This document shows positions 582-19,800 of a stretch of DNA of 64,000 nt, in pieces (position 1 is the stretch's first letter; every line of letters begins with the position of its first letter). The translations under genes and the position numbers were made by a program. The notes beneath the pieces are model-generated. The model saw only the letters and a list, made by a program, of their open reading frames with translations, did not search any database and was not told the origin of the DNA. Source of the stretch: Sarea resinae. Its lineage: Eukaryota. Location: the NCBI GenBank assembly GCA_026026165.1, contig JAPEUD010000058.1, positions 1 to 64,000 of the forward strand. Reading direction: 5' to 3'.

Positions 582-3122
582 TCATGATTCATGGTCGTGG
601 TCGTGGTCGTGTTCACGATGCTCATCATCCTCGCCATCAATCCCGCTCCCGAAATCAAGCCGCATGAGTAAGTGATCGACCCCTCCCCTCGCGCCGCCGG
701 GCCGCCACGGTAGAAACGCCGATGCCGCCTCCACAGCGCCTTCACCTCCACCTCCACCTCCACCTTCAACTTCACCACCACTCCACCCCGACGTCGACGC
801 CGAGGGCTTCTCAATCCCCGCCCCCATCCCCGTCCCCACACGCCCATCGTCGCCCAGCCCCCTCAGCACCCCAACAACAGCCCTGACGCCCCGATTCACC
901 CCGACGACAGCCGTCTCCAGCTCCGCGCGCACGCGGCGTTCCTCGCGCGTCCAGTCGACAAAGGCATCGACGACGCCGTCGTCCGTCTCGAGATCCGTCT
1001 GCAGCTGCGCCGTCTCGAGCCGGCTGATGAGGGCGATGAGAGCGTCGGTTTGGGCTAGGAAGGCGCGTAGGGTGTGCGTGAAGTGTGAGTGTGGGTGTGA
1101 GGGTGGCGAGGTCAGGAGGAGGTGGCGCGCTAGTGCGTGCTGGTAGATGGTGTGGGCGCGCGAGATGGTTTCCGGGTCGTGTGGTGGGCGGCGTGGAGGG
1201 TGGCTGTTGGAAGGAGGGACAGAGGCAGAGGCAGAGGCCGAGGCAGAGGCGGACATCCAGATGTCGGCACCGGCGTGCTCGAGTGAGAGACTGTTCCGCG
1301 GCTTCGGTATCGCCGTGGACGTCGCTGTTGCTGGCCGTGACGGATGCGACTGGCTGCTGCCCGAAGAAGACGGCGGACGAGCTGCGGACGGCCCCTCCAA
1401 CCACGTACGAAACACCTCCCAAGACCCCCGGACCACCTCGCCCTGGAAATACTCGCCCATCTCGCCGAGCAGGAACACGGCCGCGCTACAAGAGGCCCAC
1501 ACGCGCCGCATAAACTGGGACCGCGCGTTGGCTCGGGCACGCTTGGCGCGGACGATCTCTTGACCCCGCGCCGTGCAGCTGTGCGGCGGCCCCAGCGGCG
1601 ACGGGTGGTCGCGGCGCAGCGTCGTGTGCTTCCAGAGGTCGGTGAGACGCACATGGGCGCGCCGGATCGAGAGCAGGTACGCGTGGATGGACGAGTAGAC
1701 TTTCAGGTCCGAGGCGGTGAGGAAGAGGTCGAGGGGCGAGGGGATAGATAGCAAGAGCGTGGTCGGGGTCGAGAGCAATAAATCGTCAAAGGGGGTGTCG
1801 GAGAGATGGAGCTTCCGATCGTCGTCGTCAATGACTCCTTTCGGTCTGCTTCGTGCCGTCTGCGACGCATCGGAAGGCTTCGACAGGGAGAGATGGATGA
1901 GATCGCGCGCTAGGTCGAGGAGTTCGTCCACGGGGTCTTCCTCGGTCGCATACGACGAGAGCGTGGCCCAGGTCCGGGCTAGAACGGCGGTGACTTCGCC
2001 TTCTTTGATGACCACCTCCGCAAGCGCGTCTGATGGTTTGCTGGTCTGCGCTCCGGCCCGTCGATGTCGGGAGCGGATCCGCTCGTCTGCTTCGTTGATG
2101 AGAGCAATCGCAAACTCGCCGCGTCCAAGGAGAAAGAAATCGCGAAGCAGTGAAAGCATCTCTAGGATTTTGGGTAATGGAAGCAGTTGCTGTAGAGTGT
2201 TCTGGGAGAGCGAAAGCCGAATCGACGCAATGGCGCGGGACAGACTAGAAGGAGAAATGGGAGAAGAGAGTCCAGAGAGAAAACGAAGATGTTTAGGCAA
2301 AAGCGCCAGTTCCGGAGATGTCAACGATCTGGACTCCGAGACGGCAATCGTCGAGCCTCTGGTTCGGATGTGATCCAAAGATCTGCCTATAAAAAGAATA
2401 GATGACGCCGTAGACAAAGTGACGAAGCGTGGCATGAGACTGCTCCTGAGCACAAACTCCGACTTGCCCGAATTCACTTCCACTTGAATGAAAAAGTCGT
2501 CTTTGCCGAACGTAGGCAATCGGCCATAGAGCACCCAGCTGGACAATTGTCGCAGCCAGGCCGTCTCGGCCACTTTTCCTAGGTTCAACGCGGCTTCCTC
2601 GATATCTGGGTAGCCCGTTTGCGCCTCGTCACGCAACTTATCGATAATGGCCGCCCCAGAGCACAGTTCTTGAACTCGTTGCTTGTCGCCGTCATCCACC
2701 AAGGGTAGCATATATCTCGCCATCTCCCAAAGCCATTCCATTCGTCTAGTCCACTCATCGAATTCTCCCACGATTCCCGATAGCGGCACAATCTCGTATC
2801 CACCCACAAGATCCGAGTCCTTCTTGAGCAACCTGCTCTCGACATCGAGAATCTTCTGCTGGAACCGCGCAAGCTGCGTCGATGCGATGGCTGTCGAGAC
2901 CGCGCGACATATCGTCGACGGGTGAGATGAGGAGATGCGCGTCGTATGCGCCTGCAGTTGGCGATGGAGATCACTGAGTCTGGATAGAGAGGCTAGGACG
3001 GCCTTTTCCGGCGGCGATAGGAGCGGGAATGTTGCGCTGCTCGATTGAAGGCCACCTTTGCCCGGTGGCGGAAGGAGGGGGGATGGGTGTCCGGAGAGGG
3101 CAAGGAGGATTTCGTGGAGCAT
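582..3122 (-). CDS. GCP4: Gamma-tubulin complex component 4 (Spc97/Spc98 GRIP family)
   Basis: 846-aa single-exon ORF; MLHEILLALSG start, WLRQLSSWVLYG, SILFIGRSL and DFFLLGRGEFA motifs typical of GCP4. Confidence 0.88.
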   Translation of the reverse strand: MLHEILLALSGHPSPLLPPPGKGGLQSSSATFPLLSPPEKAVLASLSRLSDLHRQLQAHTTRISSSHPSTICRAVSTAIASTQLARFQQKILDVESRLLKKDSDLVGGYEIVPLSGIVGEFDEWTRRMEWLWEMARYMLPLVDDGDKQRVQELCSGAAIIDKLRDEAQTGYPDIEEAALNLGKVAETAWLRQLSSWVLYGRLPTFGKDDFFIQVEVNSGKSEFVLRSSLMPRFVTLSTASSILFIGRSLDHIRTRGSTIAVSESRSLTSPELALLPKHLRFLSGLSSPISPSSLSRAIASIRLSLSQNTLQQLLPLPKILEMLSLLRDFFLLGRGEFAIALINEADERIRSRHRRAGAQTSKPSDALAEVVIKEGEVTAVLARTWATLSSYATEEDPVDELLDLARDLIHLSLSKPSDASQTARSRPKGVIDDDDRKLHLSDTPFDDLLLSTPTTLLLSIPSPLDLFLTASDLKVYSSIHAYLLSIRRAHVRLTDLWKHTTLRRDHPSPLGPPHSCTARGQEIVRAKRARANARSQFMRRVWASCSAAVFLLGEMGEYFQGEVVRGSWEVFRTWLEGPSAARPPSSSGSSQSHPSRPATATSTAIPKPRNSLSLEHAGADIWMSASASASASASVPPSNSHPPRRPPHDPETISRAHTIYQHALARHLLLTSPPSHPHSHFTHTLRAFLAQTDALIALISRLETAQLQTDLETDDGVVDAFVDWTREERRVRAELETAVVGVNRGVRAVVGVLRGLGDDGRVGTGMGAGIEKPSASTSGWSGGEVEGGGGGGGEGAVEAASAFLPWRPGGARGGVDHLLMRLDFGSGIDGEDDEHREHDHDHDHES

Positions 3123-12558: not shown

Positions 12559-15500
12559 TTACTTTCTGAGCTTGACCATGACATATGGAATCTCGACGTC
12601 CTCTTCCGTTTGATCCTCCGCGGTGACTTCGAAAATGACGTTCTTCTGATGTTCCGGGATAGGTTTCTTGCTTACCGTTTCAACAAGCTGGCTCATTCTA
12701 TTACGTTATATCAGCAAAGCATCAATGACTAGGGCGTCGAGATTCTTACTTGAGGGGCAAGCGGTCCTTGACCTTGCTTGGAGGGTAGAAACTAGCATAT
12801 AGTAAGCTCACACCGGAGCTAACCATGGTGACCTCAAGGCCCTTCTCTCGGAAGTCTTTCAAGAAGTCCTGAAGAGGTATGTCGTCCGTCTCGAACCGGT
12901 CCCAAAGCTTGTCAATGGTGACTTCGCCGTGCTTGCCAAGGTACGTGCCTTTGGGACTGGCAATCGGCTCACTGAAACCAAAGAATGGCAGTGCAAGGTT
13001 AACGAAGCCGTTCTTATATTGCTCCAAGTCATCCTTTCCGTCGATGACCTTGAAAAACTCCAGGACGACCAGACCAGTGACAAGAGCGGTAGTCGTAGCG
13101 ATGGCTGGGATAATCTTGCCAGCAATAAATTTGGTTTTATGCCGGTCGGCTGGCGCGATAGTATAATTCTCCGCCCTGAGGTTACTGGCAGCTGTGATGA
13201 AATCGATGTGATGATTTGTATCATCATCTTTCTCAAACTCCACCGGCTCCAGCTTTAGCCCTGCAAACGATTTTGGCGGTGGCAGCGAGGCTGCAAGTTT
13301 CTGGAGCTCAGAACTGTCATCGAAGCCAGTTCCGGGAGTAGCCGCGTTTGGATCTGGCTCGTTATCGTCGGCCTGGATCTTGACGGTCGAACTAGGAGAG
13401 AACTCTGGAATGATCATGCTGTCCATAACTTTCAGATAATGATCTTTCGGGACTCCCCGGCTATTGATGCCATAGTTGAATGCATGGAGGTTGGCACCAG
13501 CAATGACGAATCCGAGATGCGTAGGGTTATTGGGATCAAATTTCAAGGGCTCGGGTGCACGTTTCGGTCCAGACCAGAAGGGCGCACCACTGGCGGTCGT
13601 AGAATCCTTCGGGAAGTTGTAGAGCAGCTGTTGAATGGCATTGTTGTACTGCTTTTCGAACTGTTGGCGAGCCCAGACGATGCAATCGTCAAAGCTGAGG
13701 GGCTTCTCGGTCACGAGGTAGTCCCTAATGTTTTCGAGCGTCTGCTTTTCGTTTCCTGTTTGCTTCAGAGCGGTTTCGAGATAATTGGGCTGCGTCAAGT
13801 ACAGATTGACAGTCTCAGGAGGACCGACAAAGTAAGATTGGAACAGATCCTTCGCCCACGCGATCGTATGCTCAATCTTGTTTGGGAAACTCCTCAGCGT
13901 GCACATTGGGAACGACTGCTCTGGGGGATCTTGAGAGCTCGAGTATGACTCTGTTAGATTTGGTAAGATCACCTGAGTATTGCCCTTGGTACCGAGAGTT
14001 CCGCTTTCCAACAATGGCTTGCGGAAGAAGACACAGCGCCGATCGACATAGGTTCGGGCGTCGACGTTGTCCAGAGCGTTTGTAACCCCATCGAGTTCCT
14101 CCCAGAACTCCTCATTGAAGATATGCTCAGTATCCTGCCCCACGCGATCCTTCAGTGCCACAATCTTGCCCTTTAGATCTGGGTTCATGGCCTGAACAGC
14201 TTGTGCAGCGCAGTCACTCTTGAGCTTTCCCACGTCCTTGGGTCGGAACAAGAACTGTCGGTTGAGGTTACTCTTCTCGATCTGATCCATGTCGGTGACG
14301 ATGATTTTTCCTTTCGGCCCAGTAGCCAATCCAATCATCGCCCAATTCTTGAGCATCTCACAACCGATAGCACCTGCGCCGACCAAGAACTCTTTGACGT
14401 TGGAAATCTTCTCCTGAAACTCTCGCCCAAATACCGCAATCTGTCCATCATAACGGGTGTTAAGGGGCTTGCAGAGCTCCTCGGACCTCTTAGTTGAAGT
14501 GGGAAGAGACTCGAGAGAATCAAAGTAAAGCCATTGGAAGATTGGGTGGAATTTTCCAGACACAGACTTGAGAACTTCTTGAGCAGCAAGTCCACCGAAG
14601 AAAGTAGCCATTGGGCTAAGGTCTCCCCGAGCCTGGTAGCTGAGCTCGCGGAGCAGTTTCTCATCAAGTTCGACTCTATCTTCGCCTTGGCCGGCGAGAC
14701 TCTCTGCGTGTTTGATCACCTCGGCCGCATCTCCATCATGATGCGGTCGAGGAAATTCGCCATTGTGATTTTGCGCAAAGGTGTGCAGGGCCTGGAAACC
14801 AACATGAAGTTGCGCGGGACGGTCAAATTTAGCATAATCGGATATGAGGAATTCTGGTTTCTTCAATTGGGCGGTGAGAGGTTCGAAATCGAGAAATTTT
14901 GGCATTTTGACCTGGGTGTATATGCCGCCACCTCTGTATTGACCAAGGCTAGAGACGTCGCCGATAGAGAAAGTATACGGCCCTGAAAGGATTAGCGACT
15001 CATATTCGAAGCCGGACTCCAGAGCACCTACCTTTGACAGTCACCTTTCGAGGATCGGCATTATTCAAGCCTTCAAGACCTTTGACCTCTGAAAAAGTAA
15101 CGTAGTCGCCATCTTCGAGGCCATGTCGAGTTTCGTCTAGAGCTGAGACTAGCCCGTCCGAGTCGATATCTGCCACAATACCACTGGTGACGGTCTCTCC
15201 ATTTGTGTCCCCAACAGCAAAGTTTTTCCCGAAATCGGTAAAGATGGACCCGAAAAGACCAAACGTATCCGCAATCACCAGATAGATGCCGTGCTCATGA
15301 CAATACTCGGATATGGTGAGCTGATCTTTCAGAGGCGTGGCCGTGAGCACGACAACCTGGTAGCGACTAAGCTGGCTGAGGTTGGAGGTCAGGTTTTCAG
15401 AGGGATGAACTCCGACGGGGGTGTACGGATTGAGCTCGGAGACGCGGGGGGCTGTCACGGTGGCCCGAGGCTTCCCCACATCTTCAGGGTGGAGGAAGAA

Positions 15501-16036
15501 TTGGGAAGAGAGGTCCGAGATCGAGGCTGGGGTGGGATCGTAGAGTGTCAAAGACTTGACACCGGCGAGTGCAACATTCTTAGCTATACAGATAGGTTAG
15601 GATTAATTTGACCGAACAAGAGAGGGGAGGGTACCAATCTCAACTCCAAGGCCCTTTAGCCCTACCACAAGCACGTTTGAAGAACCCATGCGCTTCATCG
15701 CTTCATGGCCCAGCACGTAGCTGAAGGACTCTCAGCGCCCGTTTTCCCGATGGAGGTATGGAGGCACTTACAGTTGCCGACTGTACAGCGACTCGTCAAT
15801 ATCGTCATTCTTGAGCGCTTCGATAGCCTCAGCAGGGCTGTCGACCTGCATCTTTGAATCCTAGACCGAACAAATTAACAACGTAATCGAGACCAGCGAG
15901 GTGCCAGATTGCAAGACCAAGATCGATGTGAACAGCGCCAAATCGTCGTCGGCGGAGCTTCCCGGGCGGTCGCGGGGCAGCCTGCGGCGAGCTTCTGCCA
16001 GGTGCAAAGGGACGTGAAAGAAGCACTCACTGTCAT
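12559..16036 (-). CDS. UBA1: Ubiquitin-activating enzyme E1 (6 exons)
   Basis: [30 protein letters not shown], catalytic [17 protein letters not shown] and [12 protein letters not shown]. Confidence 0.97.
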
Positions 16037-16873
16037 GTTCTTCTTCCCAGGACGAGAGAGGTCCTCGCTCGAAGCTTTCCTTTTGCCCAGCTTGACCGCT
16101 CCCGTGGTTCCAGCGTTGGAGTGAATGGTGAAGATGATGGTAGAGACCCCACGCAGACGGGGTTCAACGACAGAAGCTTAACGAGAGTGCGCCTGACTGG
16201 ATGAGGTCACACTTCACAAGGCTGCGGCGAGGACGCTCGAGTAGAGAACCGTTTCGTGATCAACTGTTGGGTGGTAATTATGAGGGGCTATTTGTGAGAG
16301 AGGCTTGTAATGTATGCGGTTGAGAGTGAGGTCAGTGTACGGAGTATGTATGGGCTGAGCAGCTTAGTGATGGTGGTGGTGGTGGAGCTTGACGCTGGTC
16401 TTGTATGAAACCAATATGCGGCTTGAGATGGTACCTCCATGTACTTTCGTCTTGTATGGAGACAGCGCTGGCAAGTGGACCAAACCAGGTACCACTGCCC
16501 AAGGACGTGTATCAAATATGACATCGGATGGCGAATGGAAGGCTAGCGAATCGAGGATTTATCAGATCGATCAGATCATCAGCATGGAGATTATTAAGAT
16601 TACCAGCACCCAAGAGGAGCAAGACGCCCTCTCAGATTACTGATGAGCGTTGACAGTGCAACAGGTCCCTACTATGCTGTATACCATCGTATTGACTGGT
16701 AAGGGTGCTGGTGAAAATAGATACATGAACGGAGAAGACTCCCTATATGCCCGACTCATGCTCATTGACGTCTGGAAAGGCGCATCTCAAACTTTTGTGC
16801 GTGCTGGAGGACGGGGAATGATATCACTATCACTACTAACGAGCAGAAAGCAAAAAGCCACGCGGAACCTCAT

Positions 16874-19800
16874 CTAATACTTCGTCTCCACCGGTGTACT
16901 GGTCCCTTTGGAAGAGGACATGCTATATGGAGCCTGCATCCACGCCAAAGCAATTAGTACGCATAACATTGCAGCAAAGAATAAGATAAAACTATAAATC
17001 ATACCAGCGCTCTCTTCGCATTGCATATTCGCCACGCTAGATTCTTGACGTTGCCATCGGCTCGAACGACCTCAGGAGCGAACTCGATACCGAACCTAAA
17101 TGGACATGGATAAGCTCATAACTACAGAGATGAGACCAAACAGGACTTACATCATATGAACGGCGAAGACAACTCTCTTGGCGTATTTCTCGTCTCGGTC
17201 GACTAGACTGCCAAAGCTTTCGCTGACGCTGTTCGGTGCGATATCTGGGTCCCGATCGAAGCAGTTCCGCACTACCGGAAGTAACGCCTGTTCTACTGCG
17301 CCCCTGATCAATCCGTTCGAGTCGACTTCAACGTCTTCTTCGTCAAAACGAGCTATGCGCACTTCAAAAGGTAGCGAGATGGCCATGACGTTGTGCTTGC
17401 CGTCGTGGTGATACCGGAACTCAAACACGCCCTGCGTCCACCACAACTTGTCGCCTTCAAAGACCATTTCGCCCGTGAGATAATCTTGGGATTCGCCGTC
17501 GGTTCGCTGCGAACCCGAGACTCGCACGTTGCCGACCAGTATGCCCTTGTCTGCTTGAAGAGAGTCGTACTCGCCTTCGTTTGTGGCAATCCAGCGTCCA
17601 GCGGAACTGACCCGCGTCACGTCTCGCGATGCATTGTCCGCGACCATGTACAAACCGATCCAGTCCTTTTTGCTGTGGTGCAGAGGTGCCCTCCACGTAA
17701 CCTTGATAGGCGCTCCGTACTCGAACATCAAAGTTCGGAAGTCGCTTCTCCTTTCTAGAGGATGTCTAGCCACCTCTCCTTCTTTGCCACTCGTCTTTTC
17801 CGACGCCGCCAGCGTTGATGAAGCCGTGCCTTCGATCTCGAGCGAGTAGTCTTTCGGATCGAAACCAGCAAGATCTGGCGCCAGTCGCGTGATGCTGATA
17901 CGTGTTGGATGTTTGAAGAGCGATGTCGAGTCTTTGACAAACATGCCGACGCCTGCAGCCAACTTGGGTCGAGCTGAGTCGATGATATCTTCGACAAACT
18001 CAACCGTCTCATCAAACATTCGATCCATGCTTCCCTGCCAACTCATCAGAGGCGGAGGTAACGACCGCTTGAGACTCTTGACCAGGCCCGAGTCCTGTCG
18101 GAGACTTCGTCCATACAGTCTCTGCATATGTGGTCGCTCGACGAAATGAATGAACGCTAGGGTGAGGGCGTGGCTTAGTAGTGCAAGGAAGAAGATGGCA
18201 CGGCTGCCCGTGATCAACGTCGCGCCCCATAGCCCGGCCGTCCCAAGGAAACGCTCTGGGTTGTTCAAGAAGCGGTAGATGCCGCTGTAAGTCAGCTTGG
18301 TCCCCTGGTCAAAGAAGAAGTCTCCAAAGAACCATCCGAACTCGCCCAGGGAATCGTAGATGCTGATGGCCGTCCAAGCTTGAAGAGCAACCAGCGCGAC
18401 ACCGATGACGTGCTTCAGTAAAACCAGACCATACCCCCAGTCTGGCGGCAACGAGTACATCTTCCATGACGCCGCTACGAAGCTGGCATAGCACATGATC
18501 ATACTGAGATGATAGATGCCCTTCCATTGCCGCCATGCTTCTTCGGTGCTGTCACCAAACTTGACAAAGTGACGCGTCCATGTCTTCTTGTGGGACTGGC
18601 GGTTCAAGACGAAGCCAAGACCGACCGAATACCATAGCCGCCAGACTAGTGCGTTCAATACAAATAGAGATTGGTAGAGCCGCGTCGATGGCGTCAGGAT
18701 GGCCAGGGCGAACATGTAGAGTTGAAGTAGAACGACTGACGTATCGATCACTCGGAAGGGATCTAGATTCTGAATCCCCAAGAGATTGTGTACGAGAGAT
18801 GGCTGAGTGGTCGTTGGCAATAGCGGGTCGTCGATGCTATCGTTTTCAACAATTTGCGCAGCCAAGTGGGCACTATTATCGGACTGAGTTGCAGATCTCT
18901 TCCGTGGAGGCGGTGGGTTATACGTCTTGTCGATGTGGGGATTCTCAACGAAGACCAAGAATGCAAATTGGGCCGCATGAGCAATCATGGAGATGAACAA
19001 AACCTTGTAGCTTGCTGCCATGAGCGAGATACCGTAATATCCGGCATATCCCACCGAGTACATTGGATGAGGCGCCATCTCAAAGACGCCATCAAAAGTA
19101 AGCTCTTGGTCTATGAGATAGAAGAAATCTCCCCAATACCAGGCGTAGTCTTTGACCACCCTGTGCGCGTCGAGCTTCACCCAGAGATTGAACACGACCA
19201 GCATCAATCCACCCAGCCAGCGAGCGAGCGTCATCACGATGTTCTCCCCGGCCGGACGACCCCAACATGCTATCGAAAAACAGCAATAGGAGACGAAATC
19301 GCACATCAGGATCAAGTCCACGACCCTCCTGAAGACCAGCCAGGTGTTGTATTCCAGAGGCGCTTCCTCGAACTTGTAGTCCTTTGGGATTTTCGTCTCC
19401 ATCTCGCGTTTCAAGAGCTTGTACACTTGCGGGTAGGGGTTGTTGCCCGAAGCAGGGTTCTCGAAGATTTTCGACTTCTTCGCCCATTTCACCAGACGTT
19501 TATGATACGATTGGATCTGTAGCAGATATCCAATGCCGACGTTGTAGCAAGCACGCCAAAAGAGGAAGACGGCGGCATATATCGGCACTCGTAGTGACGA
19601 GGGCAGGGCATAGAGTCCGTAGAGGTGTAAAGCAAGCACCGCGAGAACGCAGATATCGGATATATTCTTCGGTTGAGAGGGCGACAATAGTTGTGATACC
19701 ATGTCCTCGGTATGCGGAACGGTGAAGACTGGAAGCTCAATCAGCCACGGCTCGGCGAACGCCCGTGAGATGCGAGGGCCACTCTGGTGACCGAATACTC

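Follow-up and report, generated by a model that had tools for sequence, protein, structure and literature searches.

A conserved upstream CUG in Sarea resinae UBA1 and its relatives points to an N-terminally extended isoform with a nuclear-localisation-like signal

The gene for the ubiquitin-activating (E1) enzyme UBA1 in the fungus Sarea resinae raises the question of whether translation begins only at its canonical AUG. The gene lies on the minus strand of a 64,000-nucleotide (nt) stretch of DNA (assembly GCA_026026165.1, contig JAPEUD010000058.1, positions 1 to 64,000), which is referred to here as the window. A preliminary description of this stretch, made from its letters alone, had claimed that the frame upstream of the UBA1 AUG at 16036 is open for 47 codons with no AUG, that it is bounded by a TAA at 16178-16180, and that a CUG at 16090 in near-optimal context precedes a peptide resembling a bipartite nuclear localisation signal (NLS). 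These coordinates proved exact on the minus strand. The leader frame consists of 47 sense codons (ASVVEPRLRGVSTIIFTIHSNAGTTGAVK-L-GKRKASSEDLSRPGKKN) between the TAA at 16180-16178 and the ATG at 16036-16034, with no ATG inside, and the context GUCAAG-CUG-G is present with the NLS-like peptide next to it. We consider it likely that the UBA1 messenger RNA (mRNA) encodes at least two N-terminal forms from one frame, of which the long form would be started at a non-AUG codon, carry the NLS-like tail and most likely be nuclear. The elements on which the argument depends are the following.

16178..16180, minus strand: in-frame TAA, the 5' limit of the leader frame, read from the sequence.
16124..16126, minus strand: AUU in the context UUCACC-AUU-C, a candidate upstream near-cognate start, conserved and 12 codons before the CUG.
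16088..16090, minus strand: CUG in the context GUCAAG-CUG-G, the best-supported candidate for the non-AUG start of the long isoform, from codon conservation.
16037..16087, minus strand: 17-codon segment GKRKASSEDLSRPGKKN with a coding signature, in which 11 residues separate two basic clusters; KRK is followed by a conserved Ser, and the linker is acidic.
16034..16036, minus strand: canonical AUG1 (MT...) in the context AAGAAC-AUG-A; the ATG is conserved in all loci.
16037..16439, minus strand: 5' leader of 403 nt, AUG-free in all frames by sequence; the nearest upstream ATG is at 16440.

Frames that stay open for 47 codons or more arose in 3576 of 20,000 composition-matched shuffles and are therefore not unusual, while an ATG-free leader of this length was rarer (181 of 20,000). 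Since the window alone does not place the leader frame beyond chance, its significance depends on the comparison with relatives.

Metagenome contigs were scanned for relatives with an alignment of the UBA1 N-terminus, and 80 of the 123 confirmed loci were used. About half of these 80 were matched via exon 2 alone, and the loci were therefore not selected for having an extension. Removal of duplicates left 54 distinct leaders, for which a codon alignment was built under the guidance of the protein translation. An in-frame K-R...K-K-x-M peptide was found directly 5' of the canonical ATG in 81 of 81 cases (the 80 loci and the window); the first motif pattern caught 74, and the remaining seven carry the peptide in variant forms. 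The check suggested in the preliminary description, an alignment of Pezizomycotina leaders for conserved frame, peptide and synonymous bias, was thus run with a positive outcome, as all 81 keep the peptide and the bias occurs in this frame only.

The codon alignment carries most of the weight. Within the segment from the CTG to the ATG, the 54 leaders gave a ratio of nonsynonymous to synonymous differences per site (pN/pS) of 0.449 in frame (pS 0.70, pN 0.315), whereas the other two frames gave 1.39 and 0.98. A control segment farther upstream, aligned alike, gave a pN/pS of approximately 0.94 in all three frames. Synonyms were free while residues were kept: Lys was written as AAG in 29 leaders and AAA in 25, the invariant Arg used all six codons, Ser was TCN or AGC in 50 of 54 and Pro was CCN in 50 of 54. 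An in-frame ATG was absent from the leader open reading frame (ORF) in 46 of the 54, the exceptions being L017, L037, L039, L041, L043 and L073, as well as L023, in which the extra ATG adjoins the canonical one. Across positions -150 to -1 of 53 leaders, six ATGs were observed against 89.4 expected. Judged from this alignment, the leader segment is under protein-coding constraint specific to this frame, and the arrangement of the extension is common to Eurotiomycetes, Lecanoromycetes and Dothideomycetes.

The CUG at 16090 displayed the signature of a start codon. The column held CTG in 36 leaders, TTG in 3, ATG in 3, GTG, ACG and ATT in 1 each, GCY in 6, CCG in 2 and TCG in 1, so that a start-like codon (CTG, TTG, GTG, ACG, ATT or ATG) was present in 45 of 54. 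Wherever the column encoded Leu, the codon was CTG or TTG (39 of 39) and never CTC, CTT, CTA or TTA, whereas all six codons were in use in the other Leu columns of the same alignment. As CTG and TTG make up 43.5% of the Leu codons in 12 intron-free UBA1 ORFs, the 39 of 39 corresponds to P = 7.7e-15, a value that treats the 54 leaders as independent and is inexact because they are phylogenetically related. The column was accompanied by a Kozak-like context: 47 of the 54 leaders had A at -3, and 49 had G at +4. One lineage (L039, L041-L043) has ATG exactly at this position (HMTKRQLS), as do L024, L025, L029, L031 and L034, which are five of the seven loci found late, and the Venturia inaequalis model P0178 starts MTHKRQAS..., with its AUG directly ahead of the basic motif. 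A TTG variant (L048) was Pleosporales-like by protein search. In-frame stops were located 4-10 codons upstream of the CTG in six leaders (L011, L020, L022, L047, L051 and L059). The expectation in the preliminary description of a conserved CUG is thus borne out in the form of synonymous constraint on the codon, with AUG, UUG, GUG and ACG as the swaps at the position and 9 of 54 leaders differing. The aligned leaders indicate that the CUG, and the AUU discussed below, are conserved as codons, and on these grounds a non-AUG-initiated UBA1 extension is well supported.

In the extension, a conserved K-R-K/R-x-S motif is followed by an acidic linker and then, 10-12 residues further on, by a K-K pair. 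The linker between the basic clusters is variable in sequence and constant in length, with 10 residues in 9 leaders, 11 in 33 (and in the window) and 12 in 12, which accounts for 54 of 54. A classical bipartite NLS consists of two basic clusters, a linker of 10-12 residues and at least three basic residues among the five that follow the linker. The last property was found in only 14 of the 54 leaders, and the window, with GKKNM, is not among them; the peptide is therefore termed NLS-like here rather than a classical bipartite NLS. Of the bipartite signal proposed in the preliminary description, the spacing was retained throughout and the strict second cluster was not. The conserved Ser after KR[KR]x, together with the acidic linker, suggests phospho-regulation.

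Two in-frame starts flank the signal, namely the CUG at 16090 (and the AUU at 16126) on one side and the AUG at 16036 on the other. In the mechanism that we propose, ribosomes would scan the AUG-free leader and a fraction would start at the CUG at 16090, whose Kozak-like context is strong; ACC-AUU at 16126 may serve as a further start. The resulting long forms would consist of UBA1 plus 18 residues (CUG start) or plus 30 residues (AUU start). The remaining ribosomes would reach the AUG at 16036, or the one at 15851, and produce the short form. As the extension is laid out like a bipartite import signal flanked by a phosphorylatable Ser, the long form would most likely be the nuclear E1 pool, by analogy with mammalian UBA1a.

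The incomplete second cluster weighs against this reading, as do several further points, among them the relatedness of the leaders noted above. The nine leaders with no start-like codon at the CUG column (GCY in Chaetothyriales-like, CCG or TCG in Penicillium-like sequences) demonstrate that the CUG is not shared by all lineages, and in theirs the start must be a different one, the AUU. A hairpin that might boost CUG use found no support, as the fold of 16135-16029 as RNA gave z = -1.14 and 31 of 200 shuffles equalled it. Because the frame-0 translation served as the guide for the codon alignment, frame 0 may be favoured, although the upstream control speaks against any large bias of this kind. 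The sample covers Eurotiomycetes, Lecanoromycetes and Dothideomycetes, with Sordariomycetes, Leotiomycetes and earlier-branching fungi outside it. Finally, we infer from sequence alone that initiation takes place at the CUG or AUU in S. resinae itself, and the same holds for the ratio of the forms, while nuclear import and phosphorylation of the extension are predictions from sequence and analogy.

If the extension is translated from non-AUG codons, its role may still be other than nuclear import; it might act as a phospho-regulated degron, dock a partner, or tune the main ORF through competition between start sites. The small number of leaders that pass the strict bipartite rule would fit such a role, and the invariant Ser and acidic linker would equally suit another kinase-regulated motif. 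We nevertheless regard it as unlikely, since the spacing of the basic clusters has been held at 10-12 residues despite a variable linker, the NLS of mammalian UBA1 is situated at the same N-terminal place ahead of an alternative start, and AUG-started UBA1 N-termini elsewhere show a K-K-R-K type cluster before an internal Met.

The CUG is perhaps neither the sole nor the first non-AUG start, as conservation extends to an invariant in-frame ACC-AUU at 16126. An in-frame A-NN-ATT, mostly 12 codons above the CUG, was present in 34 of 54 distinct leaders, as it is in the window (ACC-ATT, 16126-16124). Its Ile codon was always ATT and never ATC or ATA, and ATT makes up 38% of the Ile codons in UBA1 ORFs. 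A frame-agnostic search for A-NN-ATT returned 36 in-frame occurrences, whereas frame +1 had 6 and frame +2 none; the distances from the CTG column were 36, 33, 30, 27, 24, 21 and 12 nt. In the 30 leaders whose codon at this column is an Ile codon (ATT or ATC), the segment from ATT to CTG gave a pN/pS of 0.65 in frame, whereas the two shifted readings gave 0.92 and 0.99; no coding signal was found 5' of the ATT by pN/pS in the leader alignment. The ATT is present in all nine leaders that have no start-like codon at the CUG column, and all 20 without the ATT carry CTG, TTG, ATG or ACG at that column. The evidence for the AUU is weaker than that for the CUG, and it fits a start of the caccAUU type.

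These observations raise the alternative that the upstream AUU at 16126, or another codon, is the sole real start and that the CUG encodes an internal Leu kept for other reasons. The invariance of the ATT codon, its frame and its A at -3, the moderate coding signature between ATT and CTG, and the retention of ATT in lineages that lack the CUG all favour it. Against it, the ATT is missing from 20 of 54 leaders, and several of these have an in-frame stop between its expected position and the CTG but nevertheless keep CTG, TTG, ATG or ACG at the column. The exclusive use of CTG and TTG among six Leu codons, together with the swap to ATG at the exact position, is hard to square with an internal Leu, and we consider an AUU-only start clearly improbable.

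Two further near-cognate positions were encountered. An ACG in good context (GGAACC-ACG-G, 16103-16105, minus strand), in frame between the AUU and the CUG, was rejected as a candidate since it is not conserved in relatives. Nine codons above the conserved CUG, the related leaders L017:1193-1300 (MTSLSQAGKLGKR) and L023:2953-3060 (LLTSSQAGKLGKR) have ATG and CTG, respectively; AUG and CUG are exchanged here too, at a third position.

Conservation of the leader could also arise if it were untranslated and acted at the DNA or RNA level, for example as a promoter, as a regulatory structure in the 5' untranslated region or as a protein-binding site. In favour of this, the nucleotide sequence of the TTCACCATT motif is itself conserved. 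The synonymous sites, however, are saturated while the residues are kept, and the Lys, Arg, Ser, Pro and Gly columns take all synonyms. The frame moreover survives insertions and deletions, with linkers of 10, 11 or 12 codons and ATT-CTG distances of 21, 27, 30, 33 and 36 nt, and the folding of the leader was, as given above, not significant. An untranslated element is therefore a very improbable explanation.

The contigs of relatives also offer evidence on transcription. Three of them (L010, L012 and L057), 3.7-4.0 kb in length, each hold an uninterrupted ORF of 1031-1033 residues, and L010, L020 and L022 are without the intron that genomic relatives have. All five are evidently derived from mRNA, with a leader of 200-380 nt included. 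The leader thus appears to be transcribed, as seen in mRNA-like contigs of relatives only. In L020 and L022, an in-frame stop is located 10 codons above the CTG and no ATG occurs in 207-219 nt, which argues against a start from an AUG in an exon farther upstream. That the extension is ordinary coding sequence from such an exon, or from an alternative transcript, is hardly credible: the models P0097, P0121 and P0123 do add AUG-started upstream sequence, and a genuine ATG occurs in frame several codons upstream in a small number of lineages (L017), but the added N-termini are mutually unrelated, the spliced L020 and L022 leaders speak against it, and in the window the frame is closed by the TAA at 16180 and the leader is ATG-free for 403 nt.

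Public gene models mostly lack the extension, in agreement with the earlier claim that standard annotation would miss it. The full-length UBA1 models mostly begin MTDxKMQVD or MQVD; many omit the ATG-ACA exon and begin at the exon-2 Met (MQVD...), and others add unrelated upstream N-termini. Some predictions read into the leader. P0065 and P0097 show the same peptide ahead of MTD, and a search with a peptide profile found it in read-through predictions of named Aspergillus, Penicillium, Cyphellophora and Chaetothyriales, with further named records from Teloschistes, Usnochroma, Xanthocarpia, Variospora, Psora, Aureobasidium and Oleoguttula. As a separate observation on these models, UBA1 is joined to glutathione S-transferase domains (PF13410, PF13409 and PF00043) in many Aspergillus and Penicillium entries that are 1380-1470 residues long, namely P0122, P0125, P0126, P0143, P0144, P0146, P0147, P0151, P0152, P0154, P0162, P0164, P0165, P0173 and P0187. 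These are probably annotation fusions of neighbouring genes.

The identity of the gene is clear from its domains and its closest homologues. Five Pfam domains were located on the exons, ThiF adenylation (PF00899), E1_FCCH (PF16190), E1_4HB (PF16191), UBA_E1_SCCH (PF10585) and E1_UFD (PF09358), which completes the E1 domain set, and the closest proteins are Pezizomycotina E1 enzymes with 84-85% identity (e.g. Lasallia and Xylona). The coding part of exon 1 past the AUG is limited to ATG-ACA, followed by a GTGAGT donor at 16030, and most genomic loci of relatives have the same ATGACN|GT arrangement as the window. The rest of the gene is laid out as follows.

15861..16030, minus strand: intron 1 (GTGAGT...TCTAG), phase 0, directly 3' of ATG-ACA; the tblastn match of homologues restarts at 15860.
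15773..15860, minus strand: exon 2 (DSK-M-QVD...), with a second in-frame AUG at 15851-15849, from the sequence, tblastn and public models.
12562..15772 (end approximate), minus strand: the other UBA1 exons and introns (adenylation, FCCH, 4HB, SCCH and UFD), from tblastn, Pfam and homologues.

A variant of the first exon was noted in L079 and L080 (around 3090-3105), which read ATC-CTG-ATG-GTA; the donor stands directly after the ATG and a CTG right before the canonical ATG. The first exon of this lineage gives a single Met. Upstream of UBA1 and on the same strand, an 851-residue ORF (17147-19702, minus strand) with two stretches of the phospholipid methyltransferase domain PEMT is Cho2-like. 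About 1.1 kb remains between this ORF and UBA1 for the 3' end of the former and the promoter and leader of the latter.

The proposed arrangement has counterparts in other systems. In FGF2, leaky scanning past CUGs gives longer isoforms with an NLS extension and an AUG form without the NLS; the protein is unrelated to UBA1 and the case is known from vertebrates only. For UBA1 itself, mammalian UBA1a starts at the first AUG and needs its first 11 residues for nuclear localisation, while UBA1b starts at Met41 and is cytoplasmic, according to the available portions of PMC4013028 and PMC11441413, with which the preliminary statement on nuclear and cytoplasmic forms from alternative starts agrees. 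As far as those portions extend, the likeness comprises the same enzyme, a basic N-terminal signal between two in-frame starts and a short form that begins just ahead of IDE[SG]LYSRQ. The difference is that both mammalian starts are AUG (Met1 and Met41), whereas the fungal upstream start would be CUG, possibly AUU, and the fungal localisation is predicted. The Arabidopsis enzyme has a second N-terminal proteoform from Met63 and is, in the available part of that source, the same enzyme with alternative initiation, but again both starts are AUG (PMC8770321).

Among fungi, Neurospora cpc-1 and the Cryptococcus arginyl- and leucyl-tRNA synthetases (ArgRS and LeuRS) have conserved near-cognate starts in strong context upstream of the annotated AUG, which give an in-frame N-terminal extension (PMC5487733 and PMC7049704, as far as their text was available, here and below). 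The ArgRS extension starts at caccAUU, and the caccAUU of the window is the same context (PMC7049704). The cpc-1, ArgRS and LeuRS extensions are mitochondrial targeting sequences or a transcription-factor extension, unlike that of UBA1 (PMC5487733 and PMC7049704). Neither UBA1 nor ubiquitin is mentioned in the available text of these two papers on fungal non-AUG initiation (PMC5487733 and PMC7049704), and a search of full-text literature, with the supplementary gene lists of genome-wide studies outside it, found no publication on a non-AUG form of fungal UBA1. Both a near-cognate start that adds a targeting signal and the nuclear and cytoplasmic forms of E1 are thus already known. What is new is a broadly conserved fungal UBA1 case of that mechanism rather than a new principle.

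AUG-started UBA1 N-terminal fragments of other lineages (P0238, P0264, P0273, P0294, P0319, P0328 and P0336), obtained by a profile search of a representative library, have a cluster of the K-K-R-K type close to their start, and an internal Met follows some 10-15 residues before IDE[GS]LYSRQ. They resemble the mammalian UBA1a/UBA1b layout and hint that this N-terminal layout is old. Tentatively, and with considerable doubt, we raise the idea that an E1 pair with and without a nuclear signal is an old eukaryotic design, in which the upstream AUG might have been replaced by a tandem AUU and CUG in the ancestor of Eurotiomycetes, Lecanoromycetes and Dothideomycetes, with the nuclear share set by the stringency of start-codon selection. 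The basis for this idea is that alternative N-terminal forms of E1 are recorded in mammals and a plant. If it is true, nuclear ubiquitylation capacity would be coupled to the state of the initiation machinery (e.g. eIF1 and eIF5 levels, or stress), and the reversion to AUG in the Venturia-like lineage would mark lineages with a higher fixed nuclear share.

UBA1 stands at the top of nearly all ubiquitylation. How the enzyme is shared out between the nuclear and cytoplasmic compartments bears on protein quality control, DNA repair and the cell cycle, and human VEXAS syndrome is caused by an imbalance of the two UBA1 forms. Standard annotation omits the long form, and many models miss even the two-codon first exon. 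The locus further provides natural material for the study of start-codon choice, as one position is CUG, UUG, GUG, ACG or AUG according to lineage, beside a conserved AUU, in a range of fungi that includes genetically tractable moulds. If the extension is made as we infer, a very large group of fungi, including Aspergillus, Penicillium, lichen formers and many plant-associated Dothideomycetes, would split its E1 pool by non-AUG initiation.

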